Of a stretch of 64,000 nucleotides of DNA, positions 1-60,561 are shown piece by piece; the stretch's first letter is position 1; each line of letters opens with the position of its first letter. The translations under genes were made by a program, and so were the position numbers. This stretch comes from Euglena gracilis (lineage: Eukaryota): assembly GCA_039621445.1 (NCBI GenBank), contig CP154954.1:20198642-20262641 (forward strand). Reading direction: 5' to 3'. A model generated the notes under the pieces. It was not told the origin of the DNA, made no database searches, and worked only from the letters and a program-made list of their open reading frames with translations.

Positions 1-2779
1 TTTGCAGTTTTTGCAGTTTTTTTTATTTTTTATTTCAGTTTTGAGGAAACCCGAGTGTTTGTTTTTTTTTCCGGATTGTATGTTTGACAGGTGTTTCTCA
101 AGAAAAAGCATCATCTATTCATGAGTTGTGTTGTCTACGGCTATGCCTTGCCCTCAACTGGCTTGCCAACTCCTTTGTCTCTCAATACAACAGAAATTGG
201 TGCAGCCACCATTCCAAATAATAGATTGTTTCAATGACAAGACCACAATTACTCCCAACCAAAATTGCTCCACTCCAGCAAGGTTTTATTTAGTCGTGGA
301 GTTGCTGCTGCATCTTCAACGAGAGTGCCCCATCTACAAGAAGAAGCCGAAGTTCAATATACATGGGAGACAAGGAGGGAGGGGGGGTCCGAGGGGGGGT
401 TGGAAGTTGTACACGGGGGGGAGGGGGGGTCCCCAGAAAATCACAACTGTACTGCCTACCCCCGAGACAGTTGCGACATTTTTCGTCCAATTGAGGTTGT
501 CTTTATTGTACATACATTTTGTGCAGTTCAGATTGCATCTTACGGGAAGATGACCAATGCTGTTCGTTTGTGATTGTTCATATGACATTTGTCCAAAATT
601 TCACCCTTGGCCCAGAATGCCGAATGATCGTCAATGTTTTCATTTTAAACACTCAGCAGAAGTGTTGAAACTCCGAAGGTTCTTTTCCTTGCAATGATGG
701 ATTTTGCGAAATTCAGATGCATTTTGCGAAATATTTGTTTCTTGTGAAAAGAATGGTAGCCAATGTTTTCACTTTGAACACTTAGCAGAAAGGCAGGAAG
801 CAGCTTCAATCACTCCCCCTTGGCACACAATGCGGAATTGTAGCCAATGTGCGGAATTGTAGCCAATGTTTTGCCCCTGTGTCCTGGTTCGTTACGGCTA
901 CGGCTACGGCTACTGGCAATGTTCAGATTTCTGTCAATGCTCCCCTTCCTGTTTCTTTCCTTCAGCCATTTCTCATCTTTCTTTGTCCCTGACATATTGA
1001 ACCTCGGCTTTTTTTACATGGGAAAAAAAGGTGCTTTGCACACAAAAAAAAAGGAGAAACGGTCTGAAATTTCTGAAAAAAGCAGAACATATATTACACG
1101 GCGGAAATTAAAAAATGAATTACGCCGTAAGTTACCCCCCCCCCCTAAATGACCCTATTGATGTTGCTTCAGGACCCCCCAAAGGGGGTGCTACCCCCGT
1201 GACCCCCCCCGTGACCCCCCCCGTGACCCGCCCGTGACCCGAGAATCGAGCCTTCAATTTTCATACAATGCATCAACCTTCATCACTTCAGCCTTTCTTT
1301 TCATTCATCATTTCAGCTTCTTTTTGATGTCTAGGTGGCGTTTTTGGTTGCTTTTCATCAATTTTCTGGTTCAAACCATTGAAAGTTCGCCTTGACATGG
1401 TCTAAAAATTGGAAAGAAATGCGAAGATTTGAGGGGAAATTTTTTTCGACCCAAACAATGGCGCTTCTTTGCCATATTAATTTGGCCCAAAACATTGGCA
1501 AAAGGGGAGATTGCGCAAGTAGGAAAGAATTTCATGGCAAAAAGGGGGAAGGGAAAACATGAAATTTTTGTGGAAGACCCCCCCAAAAAGAAAATAATTG
1601 TCCTCACCCCACCTTCCATTTAGACAACCAAACCCCTTTTTGACACCCAACGTCCAACGCACCTCCACACCCAAAAATGGCCAAAAATCTTGTCCCCTAA
1701 AAAAAAAAGCCAAAAATTGGTGCATTTCTGCACCCAAAACATATTTTTTTGGCTACTTTTTTTTTCCAAAGCTGGCAATCAAAAAAAAGAGGGGTTTTTT
1801 TGTTTTTTTTGTGTTTTTTTTTAAAAAAACGCCAACGAGGTTTGGGAATTTTTTTTGGGAAAAAACACAGTCTCACCTCAGTGATGGTGAAGACGAGTGG
1901 CTGTTGCGCCTTGTTTCCGCTTCATCCAAAACCAATTCACCATCAGACTGAGTGGTCTTCAAAAGTGGGAGTTCTTCATTTGCTTTGCCTCTTGTTTCTC
2001 GTCGGCCGGCGATGAAGGAACTTCAGTTCCAAAAACCCATGCTGAGAGGAGGGGGGGCAAACAATGTTTTTTTCAAAGAAAAATCCATTTTTTTTAGGAA
2101 AAAACCGTTTTTTGTTTTTTTTCAAAAAAAAATACGGTTTTTTTTATAACAAAAACACGTTTTTTTTGCCAGCTTTGCTTTTTTTCCCCTTCAAAAATAG
2201 CCATTTTGGGCCATTTTTCCAGAAATGGGCCAAAATGCATCCCAAAAAATGTAACGGTCAAGAAAATCCTGACAAAACTCCTTTTCTAAAAAAAATGAAA
2301 AAATGACCAATTTTGACATGAAAATCACCCCAAAATTACCATTTTCAAACCAAAGGGGTTTTTTTTGTTCAAAAATGGCCCCAAATGGCCAAAAATGATC
2401 ACTTTTTGGACCCGAAAATCACCGATTTTAGGATGCGTGCCGCCCTTCTCGTGATGGGATGCAACAACATGGATGCTACCTCCCGACCAGCATTCCGGTC
2501 GTCAAAAAGGACGACTTTTGCAAATCGTAAAAAACAGCCATTTATCCTCGTCAGTCAGAAACACAGGGAATTATTTACATCGGTTTTTTCAAAAATGTTG
2601 CGGCGAGACCATTAGAGCATAAATGCTGCCCCGTCATTTATGGGTCCGGCTTTTACCGCCTGAGGGCAAAGAACCATGAAGTCGTCGGCAGGAACAACGG
2701 TGGAAGAAAATTTTCGGGCTAAAAATTATGAGCCGGAAGGGCCAGGAGTTCCTCAGGTCGCAAGTAACAAGGAACCGGC

Positions 2780-3380
2780 CGGCCCCAGCCCCCTGTAGCA
2801 CCAAACTGGGCACAACCTCTGTCAACCCGCCCCCTGTGGTACCAAACTGGCCGCAACTTTTGCCATCCCTCCCCCCCCCTGCGGCACCAAACTGGGCAAC
2901 ACACCTGTGCCACCCCCCCCCCTGTGGCACCAAAATTGGGCAACAGCCGTGGCACCAAACTGGGGCAGTGCCACCCCCCCCCTGTGGAACCAAACTGGGG
3001 CAACCACCTGTGCCACCCCCCCCTGTGGCACCAAAATTGGGCAACACCCGTGGCACAAAACTGGCCACCACCTGTGCCAACCCCTGTGGCCCAAAACTGA
3101 CAACACCCGTAGCACCAAATTGCGCACCTGTGGCCCAAAACTGGCCACGTCTGTGGCCCAAAACTGGCCACCACCTGTGGCCCAAAACTGGCCACCACCT
3201 GTGGCCCAAAACTGGCCACCACCTGTGGCCCAAAACTGGCCACGGCCTGTGGCCCAAAACTGGCCACGGCCTGTGGCCCAAAACTGGCCACCAAATCTGG
3301 CCCAAACTGGCCAGATGTGCTGGCCCAAAACTGGCCAGCACACCTGTGGCCCAAACCTCCCCCAAGATGTGGCACCAAAA
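2780..3380. repeat. ~24-bp minisatellite (CTGTGGCCCAAAACTGGCCACCAC and degenerate variants)
   Basis: Tandem near-identical units at about 3130-3300 that degenerate outward. Related units occur reversed at about 8400-8660 and forward at about 9825-9875. Confidence 0.9.
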
Positions 3381-4633
3381 AAATGATTCAAATCAATGTA
3401 AATCAAATCCGAACCAGATTATCATTTCATTGCAAACAAAACGGACAGACAAACAAAAAAACTTCAAGGTTCAAGCCACAGCAACAGGAAGCAGAAAATA
3501 CACACGTTGTCTCTGATGGTCGTAACGAAAACAACATGGAACAGTTTAGTAGGGACATGTTCAGGTCCAGATTACCACATTCCAAGACCTTCAAGACCTT
3601 CCAGTTGCTTCATTTCATTTCAAGCATGGACTTCAACATTTGCTTCCCAGTGAGATCTGTAGGAGAGAGAAGTATATTCACTGACAGAATTCTTTGGCAA
3701 ACCTTTGTCCTCAGCGGGGAGCTTCACAGTACAAGTCCAACATACAATTCCAATCCTTCTGTAATGAGCCCTCATTCGGGTCGGATTGGCACTGGAAGAA
3801 GAAGTTCAGAACAGGGGTCAGATTTTGTGAAATACCAGGAAGGCGGACATTAATTTGGGATTGGCGATTCCTAACGCGAACGGGGGTTTTTGTTTTTGAC
3901 AAATGTCTAAATGTCATATTAATGTCAATTGTCTGTCAGAAACCCTTGTCATTTGCCAAAATTGGGAATGCTGCTCCCGACCACCTCCAAAGTGGCATAC
4001 TTCCCCCGTGACCCCCCCCGTGACCCCCCCCCGTGACCCCCCCGTGACCCGCACCACCCCCAAAGGGTCATCCAGGGGGGGGTTCATTTAGGGGGGGATA
4101 CTTTTCCCACTTGAAAAATTGCTCTGCTCTATGACCCCCCCCCCCCTAGATGACCCCCCAGGGGGTCATCTAGGGGGGGGGGTCATTTAGGGGGGGGTAC
4201 GCGGAAGTTACAAGCGAAACTTACAATTGTAAATTACGTCGCAATGCTATTCTCGGGTCACGGGCAGGTCACGGGGGGGTCACGGGGGTATTACCCCCCC
4301 CAATCTACCGCCATGCCGTTTGGCACTCCATGTTCCTGGGCTTTGCCTCTGAACGAGGAAAACAAACAACAAAATGCGCACCTTCGTGAAGCAGTTCTTG
4401 AGGCAAATGACGTTGGGTTTGTGTGTTGTCATCCCATGTGAGAAAAAACAAGTCAAAGGTCTCTGCAAAAAAAAATGCAGTTTAAGGTTTTGTTTATAGC
4501 CAAAGGGGGGGACCATTTTTGGACCCGAAGGCAGCAACCCGCCTGAAAAAGTGCACTGGCTTGGATGAATTCCAAAATAAAAATTGGCGGTGTACTTAAT
4601 CGGCGCGGTCTCGCCCCTCAAAGGAAAAAGCGG

Positions 4634-10860: not shown

Positions 10861-11580
10861 CAGGGTTGGGCAATTAACCGTTATTATTGGGGTCAAGCGA
10901 TTAACCATGGTTAACTGGGGGTCAACAAGCGATTAACCAATTTTCGATTAACTGTGCCTTTCCCTCGATTAATCCCGATTAACCGTCACAAAAAAATTCA
11001 TAGTGTCCCTACCCTTGAGCAGTGTTGTGCACCTTGCCAAATTGGTGCCTGAAAACATCATCCCCAAACCAGAGCTTAGACTCTCATTCATTGGATGGAT
11101 CATGAGCCAAACAAACGAAAAAAATAAAAACCACACGAATCTCTGTTGCCGAGTCCAATGGGTCAGATAGCCAAGTTGACGTAAATTCATTCGCACAAGC
11201 ATGAGCGCATCAACGGAGCAATCACTAAGGCGCTTGCGCAAATCATTGGGGTCGGAGCTTCTTTCATCTGATGACACCCCTCCTCGAAGGGTTATGTTCG
11301 GTGTTGCAGTTGAAAATTGCCTCTTTTCCAAAAGGGAACTTCGATTACCCACACAACGAGGTCTATCCCCCACCCAGTGTCTAAGTCCCCAAAGGGTGGA
11401 GAAATGTTCCCAAACCCAAGACACCTTTGATTTCTGCAAAAAAAAGGTCGATTAACTGGGGGGCCACAAGCGATTAACCGTTTTTCGATTAACCATGGTT
11501 AATTGTCCCCCCCACAAACGATCGATTAACTGGGGGGGTCACAAGCGATTAACCGTTTTTCGATTAACCATCCAACCCTG
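10861..11580. mobile_element. Internally deleted hAT element
   Basis: TIR CAGGGTTGG / CCAACCCTG, 8-bp TSD TCTGTGGC, subterminal CGATTAAC repeats. A minus-strand remnant LRKRLSDCSVDALMLVRMN resembles the hAT C-terminal dimerisation region. Confidence 0.85.
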
Positions 11581-12401
11581 TCTGTGGCAATGACACGTTT
11601 TCGATTAAGGCATCTGTGTTCAGGCACGTTTTCCATTAGGGCATCTGTGGTAACCCCGAGTAAAAAGCAAAAAGCGCTGTCGCAAAAAATCAGCGGGCGG
11701 TTGCGAGGCCGGGTGGTCCTCAACGAGTGAGGCGGGTCGGGGGCACTCTACAACAGGACAGAAGGCCAGGTGGCCTGGGAGCACAACGACACGGAGTGGC
11801 AGACATCATGGAACACGACACGCTTTACACAAAAAAGAGCCATACTTTGGTGGCCGCCGCAAATCTTGGCAATGAAAATGATATGCCAAACCGCAGGCGT
11901 CACACACAACTTTGTTCAGCTCCACACAATTTGGATTTTTGAGAATGGCAAAGAAGAAAAGAGGTTGCCGAACGATTCCCTGAAACGAACAAAGTTCCCG
12001 ACTGCTGCTCACGTTGAGCCACACATTGTTCAAAGACGCTCGCCTCATCGAACAACAGGCTGGGTTCCAGCTCCCATCCCGTCCAGGCAACAAAGAAAGC
12101 ATCCAGCTCAGGATAAGAGGCTTGCCGATGTTGACACAGTTTGGCGAACTCCAAACAGTTGGCAACAGCAGCAAGCCCCCCCCCCCCCCGGAGTGGCCAT
12201 TTGGGTGCCACGATGCCTGGAGGGTAACCACTTTGAGGGGGGTGAGGGTAGTGAAATTAAGTTACCATCCCCCCCCCGAGCTATTCCCCCCCCCCCGAGC
12301 TATTCCCATTGGGGGTACGGGAATAGCTCACTGTCATAGCACTTTTTTATAAAGAACTTCCTAAGAAAGTGGTAAAAAAAATCGACGTTTTTGGACCATT
12401 T
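11136..12401 (+). repeat. ~1.27-kb direct duplication, copy 1 (copy 2 at 19143-20408)
   Basis: Near-identical sequence from CG(A/G)ATCTCTGTTGCC to GGACCATTT flanks the transposase-bearing insert on both sides. Confidence 0.95.
11806..12000 (-). pseudogene. PHD-finger-encoding terminal exon or remnant (duplicated at about 19815-20010)
   Basis: Translation ...NCVELNKVVCDACGLAYHFHCQDLRRPPKYGSFLCKACRVP* matches the C-x2-C..H-x2-C..C-x2-C spacing of a PHD finger. Confidence 0.6.
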
Positions 12402-13148
12402 GGACGTCTTTTATTACTCGTTTAAAACATCGTTTAAAACCAGTTTAAAACCGTCGTCATAAACGAAAAATACAGGTTTTCGACGTATGGAAAAAGACCT
12501 ATTAAAGTTTGGCGAAGCGCCAGTACCGGCAACGACCGGCGTGTTCCCTCGAACGCGTGCAGTGTCATGCAAGATTATTCATCGGCGCCGAAAAGTCCGT
12601 TCCGGAGCCCGTGGAAGACCTAAGGGAAGACAGTGAACTGAGTTTCGGCAGGTATTTTATTCCCGCCCACCTCGGAACGGCAACAGTGGCCCTTTTTTTG
12701 GGTTTGTTTGGAGCTGTTGGAGGTAACCCTGTTAAATGCAACGCTGAAAACCCGTTTTGTGCACCCGATTTTGGTATCAAATGCAACAGAAGACAACTCC
12801 GGAAACTTCTTTTTTTTGCGATTTCTCAGTCCGGGGCGCGCGCCGCAGCAGACGGCGTGCGTGCAGAGGATACACGTGCCGAAAAACACGTGGGTGCACC
12901 CCGTGGCTGCTGTGCATCTGGAGGGGGGGGGGCTCAATCTGAAAAAGGGGGACCAAAGCCAAAGGGGGGGGGGGGCCGAAGGTGGTCGAAGGCAGACCCA
13001 TTTAGCGAGAAAGGTGGTGGCCCTTTGCTGAAAACGGAGGGAAACCAGCAGTGCAGGTAGTAATAGCAAAGGGGGGTGCAGCCAAGGGGTGAATGATGCC
13101 GGACACATTACGCACGATTGAAACGTAAAGGGAAGGGGAGGAGGTGGT

Positions 13149-16100
13149 TTAAACTGCCTCGTCCTCCTCGGCAGTATTCCAATGGGGAATGTTCCTGTTC
13201 AGCTCCCGTGATAGGAACGACAGCCGGTGCCAAGCTTCGTTTTAAGACTGTCAGGGGGGGGGACGAACCCCGGCCGGCCCTGGACCGCGCAACCGGGGGG
13301 GGGGGGGGGAGGGTGCCTTCAGACTTAAAACGAAGGCTGGCCGGTGCGCCCTCTCCAAGCCAAGTCTGGGGCGTACATCTGACTAAGCCCCGGGGGGGGG
13401 GGGAGCGGTTCTGGGCTGGGGACAGAAAAGTGAGGTGGCTGAAAAATTGGGCTGGCAAACCCGCCCCCACCCCCTGGTGCAGGCAGAACCAGGTGGAACC
13501 TGAACCACTGAGAGGTGGACGGAAAGCGGAAAAATGCCTAAAAAAAACACATTCCGGTCGCAACCTTGAAGAACTGATGCATGGGGGGAATCACTGGACC
13601 CTAAAGAGATGTACGGTCTGGTGCGCAGCACCCCGTACGTCAGCTTCAGGGTGCTGAGCTGGCAGCATTCCGGTGCTCAAGGGGTCAGGGGGCCCGGGGG
13701 GGGGGGGGCTGCCTTTTTTTATAAAAAACCAGGCAGTCACGTGTTTCCGGGTAACAGGTGAGTCAGTCCCCCTCCCTGGACGCATCAGAATTTGACTGGG
13801 AATATCGTCTTCTGTTGACAAACACCCGCAGCAGTGACAGTCAGAGCACAGGGTTGATTGCCGCTCCAATGTGGCACTGGTCGCCGCCGCACCATGGAGG
13901 CGCAGAGCCAGGTCTGTCATCTTCGGGGGAAATCCATGACAGGTTCCCCGGCCAATTTTTTTTCCGAACCCCCCCGGCGATGGGGTCGGATCAGTTTGAT
14001 GAAAACCGGACTGCCACTCACTTTCAGTAGAGCAATCAGACAAAAAAAATGTGCAACCCAGACTGCCACTGGCCACTACCAGCCAAAAAATAAGGTAGAC
14101 AGTTTAAACACCCCACCTGACTGCGAAACCTGGAACCAAACGCCTCCCCGCTGACCACCACGTACACTCGTCAACGTCCGTCTCCATTCGATCTGCTGTG
14201 AACGGCGCGGCCTGCCCCAGCCACATGGTGATGGCCCCGTCCTCCACCCGTTCCCCGATCCACTTGGTAGCCACGGTGACCTGGTCGGTGGACAAGTTCC
14301 GTCCCACGTACCGGTGATGCAGCAGGTACGCGGACAGAAAGACGGGATTGTCCCTGCAAGGGTTACAGTCGCATGGCTGGGGGGGGGGGCAGAATAGCAG
14401 ACTGTACCACCAGCACTGTGAGGGACAGGCTTTTTTTTAAAGAAAAGAAACCCTGCACCAAAGCCAGTGCTGCACGTTGTTGAACGTGCTTCCATCCTGC
14501 TTTGAAGTTGTCCTCTTCAGGGCCCCCCCCTCACCAAAGGCGCAAAGGCTGTCCGGGTCAGGCTTCTTTTTAAGACCCCCGGGGGGGGGTCCCCCCCCAC
14601 CCACCCAGGGTGGCGCGGGACCCCCCCCGGGGGGGGGGGGGGGGGGTGGGGGGGGGGGGGGGGGGGGGGGGGGGGCGGGCGCCCCCCCAAAAATCGGGCC
14701 CGCTAAAGGGGGGGGGTCCGGGTCTGGGCCAAAAAAAAATACCCAACCCTGCCCTTTTTTGGGAAAGGCCCTGGCTGCGCGGGAAGGCGGCCATGAGGCT
14801 GAGCCAAATGCTGACTGCGTCGGCAATGGTTGTGCCGTTGGCCTGCATGTTGTCCAGCGCCACCGCCACCGGCTGCAGCTGGAGGAAGAAATCCTCTGAT
14901 GCCCGGCGCACTCCCAGATTCTCCAAATCGCGCCGCTGTGGTTCGCCGACTTCAAGCCACCGCAACAGGTTGCCGGGGGGGGGGAAACTTTCCGAAATTC
15001 AGTGCAATTTAAACCCGAGGCAGTCAACCATTTTCCAAAATCCATCACCACACCATGCACCAAACCAGCCCATCACCATGCAGTGCGTTGCAGTCAGCAA
15101 TTAACGCAGAACCCCCCCACCCACCTGCAGGAAATGTGACGGCCTGGGCGGGTCGCTGCAGGGTCGCGGTGATCTCCACCAGAGTCGACCAATTCCGGTT
15201 ATAGTACTCGAGGGCATGAAAATGACTCCCCCACCGCACTTCTGTGGGGATGATCACAGAGGTTTTTTTTTTGGACAGCGGGGGGGGGGGAGGGGGCCAG
15301 AGAGTCCAGAAAAAAGAATTCCAGAAATATCACTACCATGAACCTAAAGCATAAAACCGGTGCAAACAGGAAACTGGAAGCAATTCAATGTGCTAACTGT
15401 AACGCACAAAAAGAACCCCACCCCGGGTTCCCAGAACACAAAAAAGTCTCTGATTGGGTGGTAACCCGAGGCCACGGGTCACCAGCCCAGCATGCGCAGC
15501 GTGGTTCTGTGTAAACCACCGCAGCACGCCGATTACCCGGGATAGCATCTCGCTCTGCGGTACCAGATCGCGTGAAAGGAGATGCAACCAGTGTGCCTGG
15601 CAAGGCACGGGGATGATCTCCGGCACGGTGGCGGCGGTGAAGTTTTCTCTCATTCTGGTCATATTTGACGCCGAATCGGTTGTCAATGCGACCACCGTGA
15701 CCTGCATCTCGGACGTGACCTTGTCATAGTACTCCTTCGTGATGCTTTCCAAGTAGGCAGCAGCTGCGGGGATTCTTTCAACCCGCCACAGGAAAACGGC
15801 AGTGCGTGAAAGGGGGGGGTCAGCATTCCAAAAAATCTCCGACTGGTATGCGGCACGCCCGTCGTGTCCTCGCAACCCACAAGGAATGAATCCATGCCCG
15901 CCTTCAGGCCCCCTACCCAAAGGCCAAACCAAAAGGGGGGAACAATGTTTACGCACCTTGGGACAGAAGCCTGCATACGGCAACCGACACGGCCACCACT
16001 GGTTCGTTGGCCCCCGTGGACCAGCCATCCACCATGAGGGTGCCCGTACGGCCGCGAATCTGTCTCACCACCTTGCCAAACTCCATTTCGTAGATGGAGT

Positions 16101-16929
16101 TCAGCAATGGTCCTCGCCACACTCCACCTCCACCATCTCTGAATGCACTTGCCTGCATTGACCACATTGGAAATCATTTTGCACATTCACATTCGACACA
16201 TTCCAGAACCAGCCTTCGAATCTGCATTGCATGATTCCATACATTGACACCATTTGGAATGACACAACCAACCTGTGAATCTGTAAACTCCAGTCGACGA
16301 TGCTTACATGGATACATTTGGAATGACAGGCACAGCCATTTGGAGGAGGGGCGTGTCCCAGCAACCTGCTTGCGGCTGGGAACCTTGTACCCCGGACGCA
16401 GCGTGTTCATCAGGGTCACGAAGTTGGGGTTCTCCACTGCACGGAATGGTGGCCGACAGCCAACCACGAAGCGCGCCACCATCAGGTCCAACTTCTGGCG
16501 GGTGCGGTTGTCTGTAATTATGGGCTATGGGCAGGGCACCAAGTTGTGACAGAGAAAAAACACGAAGAAAAACATGGTGCCATGGTGCCCTGGTCGCAGG
16601 GTCTGTTGGCGGAATACTTTCTTCGCTGGTGGTGGGGTACCATCGGCAGCATCGGCGTCGACCACATCCAACGACATGGTGCCTGTGCCCTGGGAGCTGT
16701 TGCTGCCGCTACTGCTTCCACTCGCACTTTCTCCGTCGGTAATCTGCACCGTCTCCAGCAGGCCCACAGCGATAAGGCCGGGACAGCTCTCGGCGTGCCG
16801 CCACAATCGGCTGACCACAGCACTCTGTTCAGCTCCGCATCCACGACAGGTGGCTTGTACACGTCCCGTAGGGTCCATACTTCGTGTATAATAGTTCCAT
16901 ACTGTGTCCAGCCGCCGACCGCCAGGCAT
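13149..16929 (-). CDS. hAT-superfamily transposase (BED finger + DDE RNase-H fold + C-terminal dimerisation region), about 13 exons
   Basis: The spliced translation gives VWNYY..ATCRGC..RLWRHAESC (BED), PFRAVENPNF, LMVDGWS, LTTDSASN, CQAHWLHL, TEVRWGS and ATSATLERQLS..LRTRLG. Introns are at 16527-16595, 16114-16359, 15900-15976, 15762-15844, 15252-15455, 14948-15149, 14513-14776, ~14353-14458, 13935-14135, ~13660-13858, 13367-13618 and 13226-13342; the joins are in frame. TAA at 13149-13151. Confidence 0.9.
13226..13342 (-). other. Nonconventional intron that is a 109-bp MITE (13231-13339) with a perfect 8-bp TSD
   Basis: GCCGGTGC at 13223-13230 and 13340-13347. Imperfect 20-bp TIR CAAGCTTCGTTTTAAGACTG / CAGACTTAAAACGAAGGCTG. 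Removal restores ...RAHRLSFL in frame. Confidence 0.85.
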
Positions 16930-16958
16930 GGGGCACCTGAGTGACAGGGCAGAAAAGG

Positions 16959-18985
16959 GGATACCGCCGCGAGAACGGTGGTGGGGCGAACCGAATCCAC
17001 CGACCAGTGGCACTGCCTACTGGATTTGAGTGTTCAGAGAGGGGGAAGCTATGTACAGATGGGGAAACCCCATGGATAGTCAGAAGGGGTTTGATAGTCA
17101 GGGAAGGGTAAGCGGGGACGAAGGGGGCTTAGCGGCCGATGGATGCTGGGGAGGGGGAGGCTGCGCGGCCGGGCGGTTGGGGAGAGAAGCGTCAAGGTTC
17201 GTGGTGGCGTCCTGGTGGAGATTGGCCTTTGGCGGTGATGCAGGGATGAGCCGCCGTGGTGCATGCTGGGACTTGATTTGGCTGCCGCTGCCTTGGAGCT
17301 CGCGACGAGACGGCGGACGTCGTGCTCAGTCTAGGTGTTGAAGAGGGCGCACAAGCGCTTTCAGCGTAGGATGTGTTTCGGGCGCAGCATTTGCGCAAGC
17401 TGCCGGAAGAGTGAAAGCGCCAGAAGCTGGTAGCTCTCGGCCTGGCGCGTGGCACCGATGTCTCCGCGATCCCATGAGGTGGTGCATTTGATAATCCGGG
17501 TTAGCAGCTTTGCGCTTTCGGGTCCAAGGCCACCCCACGTGCCCATGGCCAGGGTGGCAAAGGACCATCCCCCGTTTTGGCAGGGAGTGTCGTACTTAGT
17601 ATGCTTGGCGACCTCCTTCCTTTTAAGGAACGTCCTCCACCGTTCCCGAGTGGCCAGCCTTTCGGCAGCTTGCCAGCCATGGGCGATGGTGATGTCCACT
17701 GCCGTGGGCTTCCCATCCTGCCAGGTAGCTAGAAGCAGGTCAGCCGGCCGCAGCGAGCTGTCGGGTTGGTTCGGCACCGGGACCTCGCGCTGCACGCTTT
17801 GACCGTTCGTTGACAAGATGTTAAAAAGTGCGTCTTGAACGGCGTTGTGGCGGTTCGCAAAGTTATTGCGAATGCAGCACAGATCGTGGTCGCCATGGAC
17901 ATCCACGGTGGCCTGACAACCAGCACAGATGGTTGGAGAGTCCGCCAGTGGCAAGCCCAGCCACCATTTCAGTCCCAGTCGGTAGTCTGCCGGGTCGATG
18001 ACAGTGTGCAGCGCTTCGTGGGGAGGTACCGCCATCCACCCGTGCCCGATGCCGTTGACTTGCTCCAGGAGCCGTGCTTGGTCACGTTGGGCTGACCTGT
18101 CCACCAAGGCATCCACAGTGGTTTTGGCAGACTCCTTTTGCCACCATCGTTGGGAGGTATCGTTTCCTGAGGCGCAAGCGAAGGCGGCGGAGTTTGCTAG
18201 GCGACTGCTTTCCGGGTGACGATTTCCTAGCGTGGAACACAAGTCATGGGCGGCTTGCTGGCAAGTGCGGTCGTCTGGGGCGGCAGCGTAGTCAGGGCAT
18301 GCCACCTTCTTGTGGCCGTGTGTGTAGAACTGACATAAGGCTGCAGTGCGGGCGGCGCCTTGGTGGGACGCCGGAATTCGGAGGCCGCAGCCGCCCGCTG
18401 AGAGCGGTAACGCTGCTTGTAGCCGCTGATCCGCGTTCAGGGCCTGTCCCAGGATATCTTCGAAGGCGCTGAAGATGGTCTCACCGCAGCGTGAGACTTC
18501 GCTTTGCGCTTGATACGAATCTGAGGCACGCAGGAGGTGGTTTACGCGACAGCCGTCCAGACAGTAGCGGAGGAGATGGTGGGCCAACTGGGGATCGGCG
18601 ACCGAAGTAACGAGGTCAGCAGCTTGTTCGATCTTTTCAGTTGCTTCCGCCCAGGCGGCGACAGTGTGGTCTGCAGAGCTGGGGAAGTCGACTGGGCAGC
18701 CCAGGACCGTGATTCCGGACCCCTCGGCCCAGGGCACCATTTTCAGAAGTTCTCGGTCGGGGAGGCTGGCTGCTGCTGGTCCCCACAGGACACACTTGGC
18801 CAGATTAAGCTGTATCCCAGTGCGACTGCTTTCGCTGCGTAGGTAGTCAAGGCACTTCTGAAGAACCGTTGGCTCTCCTACGAGGATTCCGTCATCCAGA
18901 TACCAGCAGGACCACAGCAGTTCTGCTTGGGTGCTGATAGCCTCCGCGATGGACTGCAGGCCAACAGCAAAGCCGATCGGCCCCA
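16959..18985 (-). mobile_element. 5'-truncated RLE-type non-LTR retrotransposon, CRE-like
   Basis: 13-bp TSD AGGGCAGAAAAGG at 16946-16958 and 18986-18998. The element carries the RT/RLE ORF and about 400 bp of 3' UTR with no poly(A). Confidence 0.9.
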
Positions 18986-18986
18986 A
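17361..18986 (-). CDS. Reverse transcriptase C-terminal half + CCHC zinc knuckle + restriction-like endonuclease (5'-truncated)
   Basis: PLGP..YLDDG (RT motifs), LPLSAGGCGL, CAGC..HDLCC..RHNAV, RPADLL..AVDITI..KEVAKHTKY (PD-D/ExK RLE). The 541-codon frame is intronless. Confidence 0.9.
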   Translation of the reverse strand: MGPIGFAVGLQSIAEAISTQAELLWSCWYLDDGILVGEPTVLQKCLDYLRSESSRTGIQLNLAKCVLWGPAAASLPDRELLKMVPWAEGSGITVLGCPVDFPSSADHTVAAWAEATEKIEQAADLVTSVADPQLAHHLLRYCLDGCRVNHLLRASDSYQAQSEVSRCGETIFSAFEDILGQALNADQRLQAALPLSAGGCGLRIPASHQGAARTAALCQFYTHGHKKVACPDYAAAPDDRTCQQAAHDLCSTLGNRHPESSRLANSAAFACASGNDTSQRWWQKESAKTTVDALVDRSAQRDQARLLEQVNGIGHGWMAVPPHEALHTVIDPADYRLGLKWWLGLPLADSPTICAGCQATVDVHGDHDLCCIRNNFANRHNAVQDALFNILSTNGQSVQREVPVPNQPDSSLRPADLLLATWQDGKPTAVDITIAHGWQAAERLATRERWRTFLKRKEVAKHTKYDTPCQNGGWSFATLAMGTWGGLGPESAKLLTRIIKCTTSWDRGDIGATRQAESYQLLALSLFRQLAQMLRPKHILR

Positions 18987-19142
18987 GGGCAGAAAAGGAC
19001 ACGCCGTGAGCGCGAGGGCAAGCAGATCCTACTTTGAGTTTCCGACAGTTTCCGACAGCATTTCGACATTTTTGACGTTTTATTCCTTGTCGAAATGGTC
19101 TTTTTGTCTTTTTCCTAGTAAAAGACACTTAACTCCACACTG

Positions 19143-20408
19143 CGGATCTCTGTTGCCGAGTCCAATGGGTCAGATAGCCAAGTTGACGTAAATTCATTCG
19201 CACAAGCATGAGCGCATCAACGGAGCAATCACTAAGGCGATTGCGCAAATCATTGGGGTCGGAGCTTCTTTCATCTGATGACACCCCTCCTCGAAGGGTT
19301 ATGTTCGGTGTTGCAGTTGAAAATTGCCTCTTTTCCAAAAGGGAACTTCGATTACCCACACAACGAGGTCTATCCCCCACCCAGTGTCTAAGTCCCCAAA
19401 GGGTGGAGAAATGTTCCCAAACCCAAGACACCTTTGATTTCTGCAAAAAAAAAAGGTCGATTAACTGGGGGGCCACAAGCGATTAACCGTTTTTCGATTA
19501 ACCATGGTTAATTGTCCCCCCCACAAACGATCGATTAACTGGGGGGGTCACAAGCGATTAACCGTTTTTCGATTAACCATCCAACCCTGTCTGTGGCAAT
19601 GACACGTTTTCGATTAAGGCATCTGTGTTCAGGCACGTTTTCCATTAGGGCATCTGTGGTAACCCCGAGTAAAAAGCAAAAAGCGCTGTCGCAAAAAATC
19701 AGCGGGCGGTTGCGAGGCCGGGTGGTCCTCAACGAGTGAGGCGGGTCGGGGGCACTCTACAACAGGACAGAAGGCCAGGTGGCCTGGGAGCACAACGACA
19801 CGGAGTGGCAGACATCATGGAACACGACACGCTTTACACAAAAAAGAGCCATACTTTGGTGGCCGCCGCAAATCTTGGCAATGAAAATGATATGCCAAAC
19901 CGCAGGCGTCACACACAACTTTGTTCAGCTCCACACAATTTGGATTTTTGAGAATGGCAAAGAAGAAAAGAGGTTGCCGAACGATTCCCTGAAACGAACA
20001 AAGTTCCCGACTGCTGCTCACGTTGAGCCACACATTGTTCAATGACGCTCGCCTCATCGAACAACAGGCTGGGTTCCAGCTCCCATCCCGTCCAGGCAAC
20101 AAAGAAAGCATCCAGCTCAGGATAAGAGGCTTGCCGATGTTGACACAGTTTGGCGAACTCCAAACAGTTGGCAACAGCAGCAAGCCCCCCCCCCCCCGGA
20201 GTGGCCATTTGGGTGCCACGATGCCTAGAGGGTGGCCACTTTGAGGGGGGTGAGGGTAGTGAAATTAAGTTACCATCCCCCCCCCGAGCTATTCCCCCCC
20301 CCCCGAGCTATTCCCATTGGGGGTACGGGAATAGCTCACTGTCATAGCACTTTTTTATAAAGAACTTCCTAAGAAAGTGGTAAAAAAATCGACGTTTTTG
20401 GACCATTT
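19143..20408 (+). repeat. ~1.27-kb direct duplication, copy 2
   Basis: Near-identical to 11136-12401. Confidence 0.95.
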
Positions 20409-27365: not shown

Positions 27366-28402
27366 CAGACTTTCAGTTAGTGCGCCACACAAAATTTTTT
27401 CTGTGCGCCGCAAGCGCCGCAGGAAAATTTGACCATGCGCCGCAAGCACCGCAGCAAAAAATACACCGTGCGCCGCATGCGCCGCAGCAAAAAATTTCTG
27501 TGCGCCGCAAGCGCCGCAGGATTATTTTCACCATGTGTTGTAAGCACCACATTTTTATTTCACCTTTCTTCCCCTGTCCGGCCTCTTTGACAACCGGTGC
27601 TGAGAAGGGCAAGGCGACAGGGAGTGAATTTTTGTGTGATCTCTTAGTTCGTCTTTGCAGGCTTTTTCACAAAATGTCTGACAATTTAAGTTCATCGAGC
27701 AGATCATCGAGTGTTGAAGACAGAAAGAAATTCAAATTTGTGCCCAACAGGGGTCAGAAAGAAAAGAAGATAAAACGGGTTTTTCAAAAGAACTGGAAGG
27801 AGGGTCGTGAATGGTTGAAGTGCGATGCAGAAAAGGTAGGTAGGTAGGTAGTTAGGTAGTATCACAGCCAGTTCAGCCAGCACGTCAGCACCGTTTCCAA
27901 GTGTCATAACAAGGGGTGTGTGCCTCTCTCCTGTTTGATGTACAACAGCACAAGTCTCACCCTCAGCCCTATTAACGTCACTTGGTAAGCAGCATTCACA
28001 CCAAACTTCTGGGAGTTAATCCCCTCCAATACAGGGGTGTAACGGTTCTTAAATCGTGTTCTGGGTGTCAGGGTACAGGGTCCCAGGGGTTATGTAAAAT
28101 TTGCGCATTTGCGCAAATGCGCAAATTTCAAAGGGAAAACTCTTAAGTGCGAATTCGGCCGCCTAAGCCGGTGCTACCATGGTGAAGCACAGCTTCGCTG
28201 AAAGCCGGGTGCGCCTTTGTGGTTCAAAGTGCACCACAAAAACTATTTCAGGAAAAAATTGTGTGCGCCGCCAGCGCCGCAGCAAAAAATTTTTTTGCGC
28301 CACAAGCACCGCAGCAAAATTTTGTCCATGCGCCGCATGCGCCGCAGATAAAAAAAATTTGCGCCGCACAGAACTTCCTGAGGCGCACTAACTGAAAGTC
28401 TG
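27366..28402. mobile_element. Internally deleted hAT element (intronic)
   Basis: 21-bp TIR CAGACTTTCAGTTAGTGCGCC, 8-bp TSD GTCAGGCC, GCGCCGCA subterminal repeats. An internal fragment KRVFQKNWKEGREWL resembles the start of a TTF-type zinc finger. Confidence 0.9.
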
Positions 28403-29245: not shown

Positions 29246-32200
29246 GAACAAACGGATGCTGAAATGGACGAGAAAGGAAGGGATTTTGTCAATGAATACA
29301 CCGTGATCAAGCACTTGGGATCTGGAACATATGGCACAGTAAATCTGTGTGAGCATTATCAAAACAGGCAATTTCTATCAAGCACTCATGGGACGGGAAA
29401 CAAATTGCTGTCTCCACCTTTGTAAGCCCTTGTTTTTCAAAGGCTGAACACCAGTATTTCACACGAGCATTTGCAATTTGAAATTTTGCTATTTTTTTGT
29501 CAACTGGAGTTTTCCCTAAGTTAGACCCAGGCTTATTAGTTACCTCCCAAAAAGTCTGTCAAGATTGCCTGCCTCTGACGCAGGAACAGTATGCGGTGAA
29601 GGTCATCCCTCGTGCAAAGGTGAAGAAAGCAAATGTGGCGGAAGCTGAGATTTTGAAGAAGCTGAACTGAGGCCTCATCCTGTGCCAACTCTCTGTAAGT
29701 TTGTGCGCGATGATCAGTGTTTTTGCCAGTTTCTTTCCAGTATGTTCCAGAAATCTATGAGGCAGTGGTCTCCATGCAACATCCGAACGTCATTCAGATG
29801 TATGAGTTGATGGATGACGCCGGGCAAGAGTTCATTTACCTTTTGCAGGCTTCTTCTCCACAGCGATATGTGGCATGAGAAAGGTTTTTTTTTAGGGTTG
29901 GTCTGCCAGGCTACCACAAACTCAGGCAAAAAAGGGGGGACAGAGGCGGAAAACAGCGCCAGACCAGAAGAGAACAAACAGCCGCAGTGCATGCATGGGC
30001 GGATTTGCACGTGTGCCAGAATGAAGCTAAAGCCTGATTTCGTGCTAGAGTTTGTGGCGGACGGTGCCATTATGTCCCTCGATGGAGATGGCCAAGCAAA
30101 GACACCCACCCTAGAAGAAGTCACTTGTGCAAAGTGCATGAAGCAGGTCACAGAAGGGCTTGCCTACCTGCACAGTATGAACATCATCCACCGCGATATT
30201 AAGCCAGACAACTTGCTCATAGACAGAAAGAAAGACGTTGTCAAGCTCTGTACTCAGGGTTCTTCCTGATTGTCAAAGGGTTTTCTGAGAAAAAATCATT
30301 TTGAAAGAGATGTGGAAAGCCTGAAGTGTGGAGCAATGGAGCAATTAACACAAAAAATGATTTTTTCGGCAGAGGTATTTTGTTCACAAGGCTTTTGTGG
30401 CAGGCTATATTTCATTTTCGCCTCCAGAACAGAAGAATGTTTTTTGATTTCGCCGTGCATTTATTTTGAGGCAGAGGGCTGATTGCTTCATTTTCATCAT
30501 AGGAAGCATTCCTTGCACCCCAACCATTATTCCCAAAAAGAACGGGAAGACGCTCTGTGCTTCGATTTCGGCGTCGGAATGCTGTTTGAGAACGAGAACG
30601 ACACAGTGCGCAAAACGGAGGGTACCCCGTTTTTCCTGGCTCCCAGCCAGGGCTGCACCGCAGACCCCCACAGGCGCTATGCGGGTCTCCTCCCTCCCCT
30701 GGCCCCCTCGCGCATCAGGCTCGCCCGTCCAGCCGTGGCTCCGAGGCCTGCCGGGGGCAGTACTACTCCGGGAAGTCCTCCGATATCTGGCAACTTGGTA
30801 TCACGCTGTTCGCGTTGATTTTTGGCCCTCCAGGGAGCTTAATTGTGGCTGGGGCTCGTGGTTTCGAAGTATCAGATATCAAAATGATGTTGATGGACCC
30901 CACCTGCCAGGGGGGGGGGGCGATAAAATCACCCACCTTCTTTTAATCATGGGTGGGTCAATTATGGGTCTGGCTGACCGTTTCCATGACAGATTTATCC
31001 TCTGGGGGAGGCTATGTGTGGGTTGCCGGGGAATTATGACAGCGTGCAGGGGAATGGTAGGGCTGGCAAATATGGTTAAATTCTCTGGTCCATTTCTGAG
31101 GATGACTGGAATAGGGCCTCGGGAGCAAGTTTCTTGAGGCTCCTGGGTTGTATTACTCAAGGTCTCTGCTTCTGTGTGCCATTCTTAGCTGCAAATCAGG
31201 TCGCCCTCTTCAACGACATCCAGCAAAAGCCTCTTTCTGGGCAAGGGGCAACTTATGCCACTCCAGAGATGCAGATCTTCTCCTCTTCCTCTTTTTTTCG
31301 GATCGGCGACACACAGACACCAACAGCAGCCAATTTCAATCAACAAACATTGCTTACGGCGTGGATGGGTGGATGGAGAGCGATGGGTTGCAGTGAAGCA
31401 ACCAGAAACCCCTCAGTTGACCCCTCCAATTGAACCTGGGAGCCACTACCCCCCCCCTTAATAAGTGCACGGGTGCGCGCATTTTAAGGACGTAGTTTCA
31501 GACCCCAAGGGGTGCGCATTCATTAGGGCACTGCGCACTTATTAGGACGAAGTTTCCCCCACACTTTTTCATTTTGTGATGTCAAGCAATGAATCAAGAG
31601 ATCATGTGTCAAATCTGTGCTTGGATGATAGAAATATTTCGTCTGAGAAGGGCAGTTCTGAGAAATGTGTGTTCTTTTCCGACCTGAGATGTGACAGTGA
31701 TTTCTACTTCGGGGGGATGCGCACTTTTTAGGGAGGTAATTTCGGACCCTTGGGGGTGCGCACTTATTAGGGCACTGCGCACTTATTAGGGCACTGCGCA
31801 CTTATTAGGGGCGGGTTTACAATCAAGCAAGAGGGGTCCAAATGAAAGCTGGAGGCAGCAGAAACCGGCAGTGCAATGTCAAATAGTGCCATGCTTTTGC
31901 CCCGCAGGTAGCAGTCCGCCACCTGCGCTTTGATGGAGAGCTTAGGAAGCTGCATTTTCATTTTTTCCGCTTTGTTTGGCAATTTGCCCATACCACACCA
32001 GACCACACTACACCATACCTTACCTGACCTTATCTTTCCTTACCTTACCTGACCTGATTTTACTACAACATACCATACCATACCATACTGTACGTACCGT
32101 ACCATACCATACCATACCATACCATACCATACCATACCTTACCTTACCGTATCGTACCGTACCGTACCATACCATACCATACCATACCATACCATACCAT

Positions 32201-34680
32201 ACCATACCATACCATACCATACCATACCATACCATACCATACCGTACCGTACCGTATCGTACCGTACCGTACCATACCATACCATACCATACCATACCAT
32301 ACCATACCATACCATACCATACCATACCATACCATACCATACCATACCATACCATACCATATCATACCATACTGTACCGTACCGTACCATACCATACCGT
32401 ACCGTACCGTACCGTACCGTACCGTACCGTACCATACCATACCATACCATACCATACCATACCATACCATACCATACCATACCATACCATACCATACCAT
32501 ACCATACCATACCATACCATACCATACCATACCATATCGTACCATACCATTCCATACCACACCACACCACACCACACCACACCACACCACACCATACCAT
32601 ACCATACCATACCATACCATACCATACCATACCATACCATACCATACCATACCATACCATACCATACCATACCATACCATACCATACCATACCATACCAT
32701 ACCATACCGTACCGTACCGTACCGTATCGTATCGTACCATACCATACCGTACCGTACCGTACCATACCATACCATACCATACCATACCATACCATACCAT
32801 ACCATACCATACCATACCATACCATACCATACCATACCATACCATACCATACCATACCATACCATACCATACCATACCATACCATACCATACCATACCAT
32901 ACCATACCATACCTACCATACCATACCATACCGTACCGTACCATACCATACCATACCATACCATACCATACCATACCATACCATACCATACCATACCATA
33001 CCATACCATACCATACCATACCGTACCGTATCGTATCGTATCGTACCATACCATACCATACCATACCTTACCATACCATACCATACCATACCATACCATA
33101 CCATACCATATCGTACCATACCATACCATACCATACCATACCATATCGTACCACACCACACCACACCATACCATACCATACCATATCACACTTTATGGCA
33201 GAGAACTTCATCCGCCTCCCGGAGCCAACGCTGCCCAGTGACAGCATCCCAAAGGGGGCCAGTGCCAACTTGAGCCACCTGCTGCAGCGCATGCTGGAGA
33301 AGGACGCCCTCATCCGCATCTCCCTCAATGAGATCAAGGACCGCCCGGGCCCCTTCCAGCATGGCTCATGGGCGAGGTGAGGACGCACTCTTATTTTGTC
33401 AACCCCGTGTGACTTTTGTCCGTCTGACCTATCTGACGTTCCAATTGTTGACCTCTTCCGTCCTGGCAGAGTACCCCCGAGGTCCAGCCAAGAGCCCGTT
33501 TCTTTCCAACCCCCTCCCTTCGATGAGCTCTGACTTCCTATTCAGCGCTTCAATTGTTACAGGGGTTAGGACTGAGGTTTCTGAATTTCTGGTCACAGGC
33601 CACACTGGCCCTCAGTCTCTAAAGCGCCACCATGAAGGAAAGAGACAGTTTTGGTACCTTTTTTTATACCCACCGCAAGATGAAACCAAGTTCTTTTGTT
33701 TCCCCTGTGCTTCACCCCCTGATAAGTGACCCGAAAACCCTGGTCTTGCCCCCCCCCCTGCATGGCAACTGCAACCGCTTTCAGTGAATTTCAACTGTAA
33801 CAAGGTTCAGTGAACTTCGAAAAGATGGCATTGCATTATTTGCCCAAACCCCCAAGCCAGTTTATTTGTTAGCTCCACGAGATCGGCCGCCCAAGTCAAA
33901 AATGTATGGCCCAACCCAGGGCATTCTTCAAGGGACGGGGCAAATATTTTGTTTTAAAATTTAAAGGTCCGCCCTTGGGCTAAATGCTGTCCACCTGCCG
34001 GTCTGGGGATTGAACTGGGTTGAAAACTAAAAAAAAAATAACAGAAAGCTTTAAAACACCTTTTCTGATATATTCAGTGGATGGACGATGGACCAAGGAT
34101 GCTAGAAATCAATTTTCCCCCAATGCCGACCTGTTTTCGCCGAAAAATGTCAATTTTTTCACCACTTTTTTTGCAAGGATTTTTTGTTGTTGAATGTGTC
34201 CGGATAGCAGAAAACAAGCACCTTAAACTTGAAGGTAGCCCTGGCCAAGCCCCAAAATTTTTGTTTCAAAAACGAGCTTTTGTTAATTGTGGCCAAACTC
34301 AAATTTCCCCAGTCTGGTCGAACCCAGGTCGGGTTCCAGCCAGTGCACTATGTCTCATGGGGGAGGGGAGGACGGTCAGCAGGCCAGCCACTGAGCCATC
34401 CCAACCAGCCCAAATTTTCTGACCTCAAGGCCACTGGGGGGGGGGGACTCTGGTGCATATTCGACAGGGGCAAGTGAGAGTCATTTTCTCAAAAAAAGAT
34501 CATGTGATACTGAACCGGAATTTTTTTTGCTCCGGAGATTGAAGGCGACCGCTCACACCCCTGGGTCACGGGGGAGAACAGCCCCGTGCCGAACTCCATG
34601 CGCCTGGTGGCCGCCGCCTCCGCGGAGAGTCTGACGTACTCTGAGCCGCCCGTCGCCGGCTTCTTCTTGCGCCTCGTCCC
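29246..34680 (+). CDS. CaMKK-like Ser/Thr protein kinase domain (multi-exon)
   Basis: Spliced translation: VNEYTVIKHLGSGTYGTV..YAVKVI..HPNVIQMYELMDD..IYLVLEFV..HRDIKPDNLL..KLCDFG..RKTEGTPFFLAPE..YSGKSSDIWQLGITLFALIFGRVPF..MLEKD..RISLNEIK.HPWVT. Introns at 29362-29576, ~29660-29773, 29843-30041, 30252-30563, 30645-30742, 30828-31173, ~31234-33209 and ~33340-34554. Confidence 0.92.
32050..33185. repeat. (TACCA/TACCG)n pentanucleotide microsatellite inside a kinase intron
   Basis: About 1.1 kb of ACCAT units with ACCGT, ATCGT and ACCAC variants. Confidence 0.97.

Positions 34681-41869: not shown

Positions 41870-60561
<18,692 letters not shown>

Follow-up and report, generated by a model that had tools for sequence, protein, structure and literature searches.

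A CAG-ended miniature transposon as a probable nonconventional intron in a hAT transposase gene of Euglena gracilis

The origin of the nonconventional introns of euglenids has been an open question since the 1990s. Can such an intron still be recognised as the transposon from which it came? The question is raised by a 64,000-nucleotide stretch of Euglena gracilis DNA (GenBank assembly GCA_039621445.1, contig CP154954.1, forward-strand positions 20,198,642 to 20,262,641), referred to below as the window and numbered from its first letter. It contains a hAT-family transposase gene, the last intron of which (I11) has as its core a miniature inverted-repeat element of 109 bp. This element is probably a CAG-ended miniature transposon that duplicates 8 bp of its target and acts as a nonconventional intron.

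The 109-bp element occupies positions 13231..13339 of the minus strand and is enclosed by two copies of an 8-bp target-site duplication (TSD), one upstream in the RNA sense (13340..13347) and one downstream (13223..13230). The copies read GCCGGTGC on the plus strand and GCACCGGC on the coding strand, and are identical at 8/8 positions. The ends of the element form a 22-nt inverted repeat that is 86% complementary, with 17/20 positions pairing when counted from the CAG/CTG-type tips; on the coding strand the tips are CAG at the start and TTG at the end, and the interior contains G/C homopolymer runs. The terminal stem of I11 is present in both the minimum-energy and the centroid folds. The first-pass annotation of this locus had described a 109-bp element with inverted ends of about 20 bp and a perfect 8-bp TSD, and this description is borne out, as are its other descriptive details wherever they were checked. 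It had also stated that removal leaves a single TSD copy and restores the frame; indeed, when the element and one TSD copy are taken out, the coding sequence becomes ...LERAHRLSFLSRELN... and continues in frame up to the stop. The same would be true of any transposon removed together with one TSD copy, so the return of the frame is no proof by itself.

The transposase gene (13149..16929, minus strand) was modelled by mapping relatives onto the DNA and then enumerating in-frame junctions. It consists of 12 exons and 11 introns and has 566 codons with a single terminal stop. From high to low coordinates, exons 1-6 are located at 16929-16596, 16526-16359, 16112-15977, 15899-15845, 15761-15456 and 15251-15141, and exons 7-12 at 14935-14781, 14353-14136, 13934-13859, 13659-13619, 13366-13343 and 13225-13149. 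That the frame is open once the 11 interruptions are removed argues for introns, in a gene that is active or was so until recently, rather than for debris.

A HMMER search of a library of 1.84 billion proteins with exon 4 returned 76 relatives, of which 17 had E<=1e-10. Word-index searches against longer proteins, with exon 4 or exon 7 as the query, gave no match, and a cluster look-up of five of the relatives gave no informative names. Among the ten longest relatives scanned against Pfam, DUF659 was present in 10/10 and Dimer_Tnp_hAT in 4/10, and single exons of the window gave sub-threshold matches to zf-BED (E 0.008) and DUF659 (E 0.0057). Residues 1-551 of the spliced model align with residues 1-560 of the relative P0024 (E 1e-114), which contains DUF659 (E 4.9e-14) and Dimer_Tnp_hAT (E 7e-7); the domain assignment of the joined model comes from this alignment. 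The alignment crosses the junction that is restored by removal of the 109-bp element. The encoded protein is hAT-like in its BED-like finger, in a core of the DUF659 type that has a C-x2-H motif, and in the C-terminal dimerisation region of hAT proteins. Neither Rfam, applied to the gene region and the whole window, nor ARAGORN, applied to the window, gave a match. Three close relatives on short contigs (P0001, P0003 and P0007) contain extra in-frame segments that the gene of the window lacks at the corresponding places; in P0001, for instance, one lies between DGWST and NEPV. Such segments may be short introns, located elsewhere in the paralogues, that were left unspliced.

Removal of the element at the RNA level is suggested by a comparison of four runs of the same organism over positions 12450-17350 in 30 bins. 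Run X7 is DNA-like, all 30 bins being covered, introns included; X8 is a true raw RNA run; and X1, a contig set of 61 million letters whose RNA nature is a guess, covers the bins that contain exons and drops to zero depth in bins made up of intron alone, for example 13434-13597. The joint 13222>13340, corresponding to I11, skips 117 nt (109+8), with 8 letters fitting both sides, and is found in X1 at a depth of 20.1, in one contig. The joint 13363>13616, corresponding to I10, skips 252 nt, also with 8 letters fitting both sides, and has an X1 depth of 9.29; neither joint occurs in the other runs. The joint 13659>13859, corresponding to I9, skips 199 nt, with 2 letters fitting both sides, and is supported by an X1 depth of 9.29 in one contig and by two raw reads of X8. 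The interior of the 109-bp element has almost no X1 depth (two covering bins), which makes the joined form the dominant one in this run. The first-pass annotation had named the junctions 13226/13342 and 13367/13618 as the ones to check, and both joints are indeed present in X1, but the nature of this run is guessed and the I11 joint was seen in one contig.

One further X1 joint, 13211>13616, skips 404 nt, taking out I10 and I11, the 24-nt exon that separates the two, and an 11-nt piece of the last exon. Neither splicing rule accounts for this joint, which may be an alternative product or come from a deleted paralogue. Long G or C runs occur inside small elements and introns (13293-13312, 13690-13710, 14590-14680 and others); raw RNA reads accumulate there with loose poly-G ends, which makes the depth at these places unreliable.

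The geometry of I11 can be compared with a splicing signature of Euglena nonconventional introns, N3-CDG...CH'G-N5-6|R, which was set by knock-in mutagenesis (Nomura 2025, PMC12501133). In that work a 5' spacer of exactly 3 nt is required, the favoured 3' spacer is 5 nt, and the strict pattern is reported for 61.2% of the annotated nonconventional introns of E. agilis. As 3+5 = 8, the published spacers imply that a CAG/CTG element is removed together with exactly one copy of an 8-bp TSD and that the pre-insertion sequence comes back. Drawn in this 3+5 register, I11 is a 117-nt intron at 13226..13342 of the minus strand, in agreement with the RNA-like joint, which fits 9 equivalent registers. 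In the register 13342>13226 it has CAG at +4..+6 after a 3-nt spacer, as the published 5' motif demands, and the first downstream exon base is G, a purine as in the code. GT/GC..AG borders occur in 0/9 of the equivalent registers, which means that the borders are nonconventional in each of them.

The other introns of the gene give a mixed picture, with 8/11 fitting the 3+5 geometry. Five of the 11 (I1, I3, I4 with CGG..CCG, I5 and I8) have a strict-code junction that is also homology-optimal; because the enumeration of junctions required the frame to be kept, these five are a matter of compatibility and no independent test. The 3' junction of I8 is not fixed, contig arithmetic fitting 198 nt (CTG+2) and the strict code 201 nt (CTG+5). 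Three more (I2 with CAC..GTG, the RNA-supported I10 with CGT..ACG, and I11) have the 3+5 geometry with another stem or with TTG, while I6 (GT-AG) and I7 (GC-AG) look conventional. I9 (13660..13858, minus strand, 199 nt) is RNA-supported and irregular, lying outside the 3+5 and CAG-CTG geometry. A 'geometry only' category with stems of at least 5 gave dozens of in-frame alternatives, so only strict-code, RNA-supported and homology-optimal junctions were counted. The earlier claim that most resolved introns begin 3 nt before and end 5 nt after the stem thus stands for these 8/11, but not for I9. Intron I10 (13367..13618, minus strand, 252 nt), which was said to have a perfect 9-bp stem and a 7/8 flanking repeat, does have both, the terminal stem being CGTACATCT/AGATGTACG from +4 to -6. 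Flanking 8-mers in the 5+3 register agree at 8/8 positions in I11, 7/8 in I10 and 0-3/8 in the other nine; I11 is the least decayed example in the transposase gene.

Intron I7 carries a high-copy element fragment (14559..14745, plus strand) with the related end CAGGCTTCTTTTTAAGAC, which the first-pass annotation had rightly placed at 14559. It belongs to a nest of element ends at 14418-14745, with CAGGCTTTTTTTTAAAG at 14426, CAGGCTTCTTTTTAAGAC at 14559 and CAGGGTTGGG at 14751 (minus strand). The X7 depth here is 58,522 in bin 14418-14581 and 28,440 in bin 14582-14745, and such values of 28,000-58,000 point to very high-copy families. An internal end within I7 matches the free element at 10861 in 12/14 positions.

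Free elements of the same build are found elsewhere in the window. CAG...CTG elements with perfect 8-bp TSDs are located at 2488..3973 (1486 bp, TSD CTCCCGAC), 10861..11580 (720 bp, TCTGTGGC), 27366..28402 (1037 bp, GTCAGGCC), 42519..42962 (444 bp, CTTTGCGC) and 55990..56256 (267 bp, CCCTGAAC). The last four had been listed in the first-pass annotation and all of them are real; the first was absent from its list. Together with the 109-bp element, which was counted apart from the census described below on account of its imperfect tips, they bring the number of CAG...CTG-type elements with a perfect 8-bp TSD to six, ranging from 109 to 1486 bp. A relative of the 55990 element at 57522..57771 has a TSD of 7/8, and an element at 43189..44812 with ends CAGGCTKCTTTTAAG, of the same family as the 109-bp intron, has a TSD decayed to 6/8. 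The interior of the latter is taken up by a large microsatellite block of the TA/CA type (43240-44790). All these elements, the 7/8 and 6/8 ones included, are too short to encode a transposase. The other TSD-bearing elements were checked for interrupted reading frames: none is spanned by a convincing coding frame, and the open frame of 300 codons around 43189-44812 is low-complexity. Free copies in apparently non-coding DNA that share CAG/CTG tips and exact 8-bp repeats represent a signature of cut-and-paste DNA transposition.

The census comprised inverted-repeat pairs 40-3000 bp apart with at least 9/12 terminal pairs in the 64-kb window, and was passed through a low-complexity filter, which also removed the genuine 55990 element. 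After filtering, the 8-bp flanks were identical (8/8) in 4/469 CAG-ended pairs versus 12/30,318 pairs with other ends, and all 12 of the latter sit in one palindromic tandem array at 58701-59653, built on TCGGCCGACTAG; the CAG-ended cases go beyond what chance would give. The ends of several introns resemble those of the free elements. The 3' end of I5 matches the 55990 element in 13/14 positions (null fraction 0.0014), the 3' end of I9 the 2488 element in 12/14 (0.0075), both ends of I11 the 43189 element in 11/14 (0.027), and the 3' end of I4 the 57522 element in 11/14 (0.027), where the null fraction gives the proportion, among 2,137 other CAG 14-mers, of those with an equally good score; T-runs in the ends of I4 and I5 raise their scores somewhat.

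These observations can be brought together in the following scheme. A non-autonomous DNA transposon with CAG-type tips and inverted ends of about 20 nt, most likely mobilised by a hAT transposase, would have inserted into the coding sequence for the C-terminal dimerisation domain of a hAT transposase gene, and the insertion would have been tolerated because the element is treated like a nonconventional intron of the euglenid kind. Pairing of its inverted ends in the pre-mRNA would bring the flanks together, and the nonconventional machinery, following the rule taken from the literature, would cut 3 nt before the CAG at the 5' end and 5 nt after the C/UUG at the 3' end. The RNA would thereby lose the element and exactly one TSD copy, and the pre-insertion frame would return.

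Several features of the locus weigh against reading I11 as a transposon spliced in this way. In the 3+5 register it has TTG rather than CTG at -8..-6 and so fails the strict code, the TTG pairing with CAG solely via a G:U wobble, and in the test intron of PMC12501133 each tested substitution of CAG or CTG abolished splicing; the wobble together with the long stem may offset the TTG. The cut register is unreadable from the element, because the 9 equivalent registers, from 13223-13339 to 13231-13347, all yield the same RNA. Folding of the whole element is no better than that of shuffled sequences (z -0.95), a score that is uninformative since the G and C runs also form pairs after shuffling. Within the gene, nine of the 11 introns are at chance level for the flanking 8-mers, leaving the footprint in the two 3'-most only; the stems of I2 and I10 are not CAG/CTG; and the irregular I9 puts 1/3 of the RNA-supported introns outside the 3+5 geometry. 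On the side of the runs, the RNA nature of X1 is a guess, the joint 13222>13340 rests on a single contig, no read of the raw RNA run X8 falls on the element site, and X1 also has contigs that retain I1 and parts of I3/I4. No empty, insertion-free site was seen in X7. This, and the 3/20 positions at which the two arms of the element differ, leave the earlier description of an intron 'caught in the act' unsupported; at an identity of at least 93% the 109-bp element shows no depth excess in X7.

The likeliest rival reading is that the element nested in a transposon copy already in decay and is never spliced, the X1 contig coming from an element-free copy or allele, either transcribed or carried over as DNA. 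Transposons often nest. The X1 contigs differ from the window by 1-6% (6 are identical at >=99%, 20 at 95-99% and 7 at 90-95%), a spread that points to other copies or strains as their origin. As X1 and X7 are separate samples, an insertion-free allele in X1 is conceivable, and the retention of some introns in X1 points the same way. Against it, however, X7 contains no contig with any of the three joints at a depth of about 600-1500 at the element site, X1 also removes two further introns and has close to zero depth inside the element, and an open frame of 566 codons after 11 removals is unexpected for a dead copy. A nested, unspliced insertion is unlikely, and the joint 13222>13340 probably arises at the RNA level in a strain that carries the insertion.

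A second alternative accepts a spliced, transposon-derived intron and assigns it to a parent other than hAT, for example Merlin. Two Merlin families have been described in E. gracilis, both with 8-bp duplications (PMC8101967). Around the hAT gene no ends match those of the small elements: inverted ends with a TSD enclosing the gene were found in none of 2,820 candidate pairs, which gave low-complexity matches only, and no autonomous element with matching ends is tied to the small elements. An 8-bp TSD and CAG tips are usual features of hAT elements, and a hAT gene with an intact frame lies in the window. Merlin ends carry a conserved terminal 5'-GG-3' (PMC8101967), which argues against Merlin for the six CAG-tipped elements with perfect TSDs. 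A non-hAT parent is thus quite unlikely, and the small elements are likely of hAT parentage, judging from TSD length, CAG tips and the hAT gene in the window. The earlier designation as a hAT-type miniature element is upheld as far as a miniature element with an 8-bp TSD inside a hAT transposase coding sequence is concerned, but its hAT parentage comes via TSD length and tips only. The hAT transposase may be the enzyme that generates these introns.

The joint could also be a cDNA artefact in which the reverse transcriptase switched template over the hairpin between the 8-nt direct repeats. Direct repeats around a hairpin are a classic setting for such switching, and the non-canonical ends, the 8-nt repeat, the long terminal stem and the occurrence in one contig are its hallmarks. 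Yet the joined form dominates in X1, with a depth of 20.1 versus almost none inside the element, and introns of the same architecture are truly spliced in vivo, as shown for nonconventional introns by the rescue of a phenotype in knock-in lines (PMC12501133), which makes an artefact very improbable. Finally, the 8-nt repeat as a by-product of another route of intron gain, by repair of a staggered break or re-insertion of a circular intron RNA, would agree with the 84.4% of E. agilis introns, conventional ones included, that are 'slidable' via short flanking repeats (PMC12501133) and with the release of euglenid nonconventional introns as circular RNA (PMC11282704), but is barely credible in view of the free, apparently non-coding copies with the same CAG/CTG tips and exact 8-bp repeats.

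Read as a spliced miniature transposon, I11 shares with euglenid nonconventional introns its non-GT/AG borders, paired ends, CAG at +4..+6, a stem end at -6, a purine as the first exon base, a junction that is slidable via direct repeats and, as far as the one contig of the RNA-like run X1 goes, its removal (PMC3935182, PMC12501133). It differs from typical members of the class in having TTG instead of CTG, paired ends of about 20 nt versus a 3-nt core, a flanking repeat that is a full 8-mer, and a family with free genomic copies, something that these papers put forward as a hypothesis only. Introners, known from Micromonas, Aureococcus, dinoflagellates and Fritillaria, are likewise DNA transposons with terminal inverted repeats and TSDs that turned into introns, the TSD supplying part of the excised stretch and the frame being restored (PMC11282704). 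They are removed by a (modified) spliceosome, and their 3-5-nt duplications give one splice site, whereas I11 would follow the stem-dependent euglenid code and both of its cuts would fall within the two 8-bp TSD copies (3+5).

The 109-bp element and its free relatives resemble hAT elements such as Ac/Ds, hobo and Tol2 in the 8-bp duplication, the CAG tips and the short inverted ends. They depart from these in that an autonomous element with matching ends is not delimited and in that the transposase gene of the window has 11 introns, about 9 of them nonconventional. The nearest parallel is the maize Ds intron, also a hAT-family non-autonomous element in an exon that is removed from the transcript; such an insertion was reportedly removed via cryptic spliceosomal sites, imprecisely (work attributed to Giroux et al. 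1994), unlike the removal here of exactly the element and the duplication.

The surroundings of the transposase gene are themselves rearranged. An uninterrupted 555-codon open reading frame (ORF) on the minus strand (17361-19028), with a YLDD reverse-transcriptase motif near its start and a weak RVT_1 match (E 0.0054), lies immediately upstream of the hAT gene and resembles a retroelement truncated at its 5' end. The ORF and the hAT gene lie between the two copies of a 1268-bp direct repeat (11136-12401 and 19143-20408), 99.2% identical and 8007 bp apart. Since the second copy begins in the middle of the sequence of the 10861-11580 element, the repeat represents a segmental duplication or an assembly artefact rather than a pair of long terminal repeats. 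The true ends of the transposase element may lie elsewhere, as the gene adjoins the truncated reverse-transcriptase ORF within this duplication.

Just upstream of the transposase start codon is a superabundant stretch of 54 nt (16976-17029). Its X7 bin has a depth of 439,885 versus about 1,000 in the neighbouring bins, and the depth in the two RNA-like runs is 118 and 1,444. The stretch can form two short hairpins (CCAGT..ACTGG and GGTGG..CCACC) and has no Rfam or tRNA match. Further along the window, a long tandem array at 31988-33190 has copies that are about 80-89% alike, and the only strong GC skew of the window (-0.52, at 32001-34000) lies over it.

The idea that nonconventional introns descend from transposons is not new. 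A MITE-like origin (from miniature inverted-repeat transposable elements) was proposed when no euglenid transposons were known (Milanowski 2014, PMC3935182), and the correctness of the transposon theory was still being asked about later (Guminska 2018, PMC6221363). A 2024 review speaks of 'TSD-like' repeats and places CAG/CTG at +4..6 and -8..-6 (PMC11282704), papers of 2024 in BMC Genomics and 2025 in RNA repeat the hypothesis of a transposon origin, and according to PMC12501133 the origin 'remains unclear', with MITE-like elements being suggested. In the open literature, supplements aside, neither a link between an 8-bp duplication and the 3+5 spacers nor a hAT assignment for Euglena introns was found.

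The first-pass annotation had gone further and equated the splicing code with the insertion footprint. Its 3+5 = 8 arithmetic is sound given the published spacers (PMC12501133), but the register cannot be read at this locus and the TTG of I11 does not fit. That the code mirrors the footprint is an attractive notion, consistent with everything seen here, of which one window is no proof. The same route may have made many other nonconventional introns. A wider proposal, plausible but on balance doubtful, is that the asymmetric cut rule of euglenids undoes, at the level of the RNA, the integration of hAT-type elements with CAG ends and 8-bp duplications. Any such element landing in a transcribed exon, whichever way round, would then be a seamless intron as soon as it is transcribed, provided that position 6 of the duplication is a purine; the nonconventional introns of Euglena, which number hundreds of thousands, would be decayed copies; and the splicing machinery would have evolved with, and possibly from, a transposon system.

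For the long-standing question of intron origin in euglenids, the locus provides a tangible example: here an intron can still be recognised as a transposon, its 8-bp TSD is intact, free relatives lie within the same 64 kb, and a candidate transposase family is nearby. The relation 3+5 = 8 would explain by plain arithmetic why such insertions do no harm from the outset and, if true, would also account for most nonconventional introns being 'slidable'.

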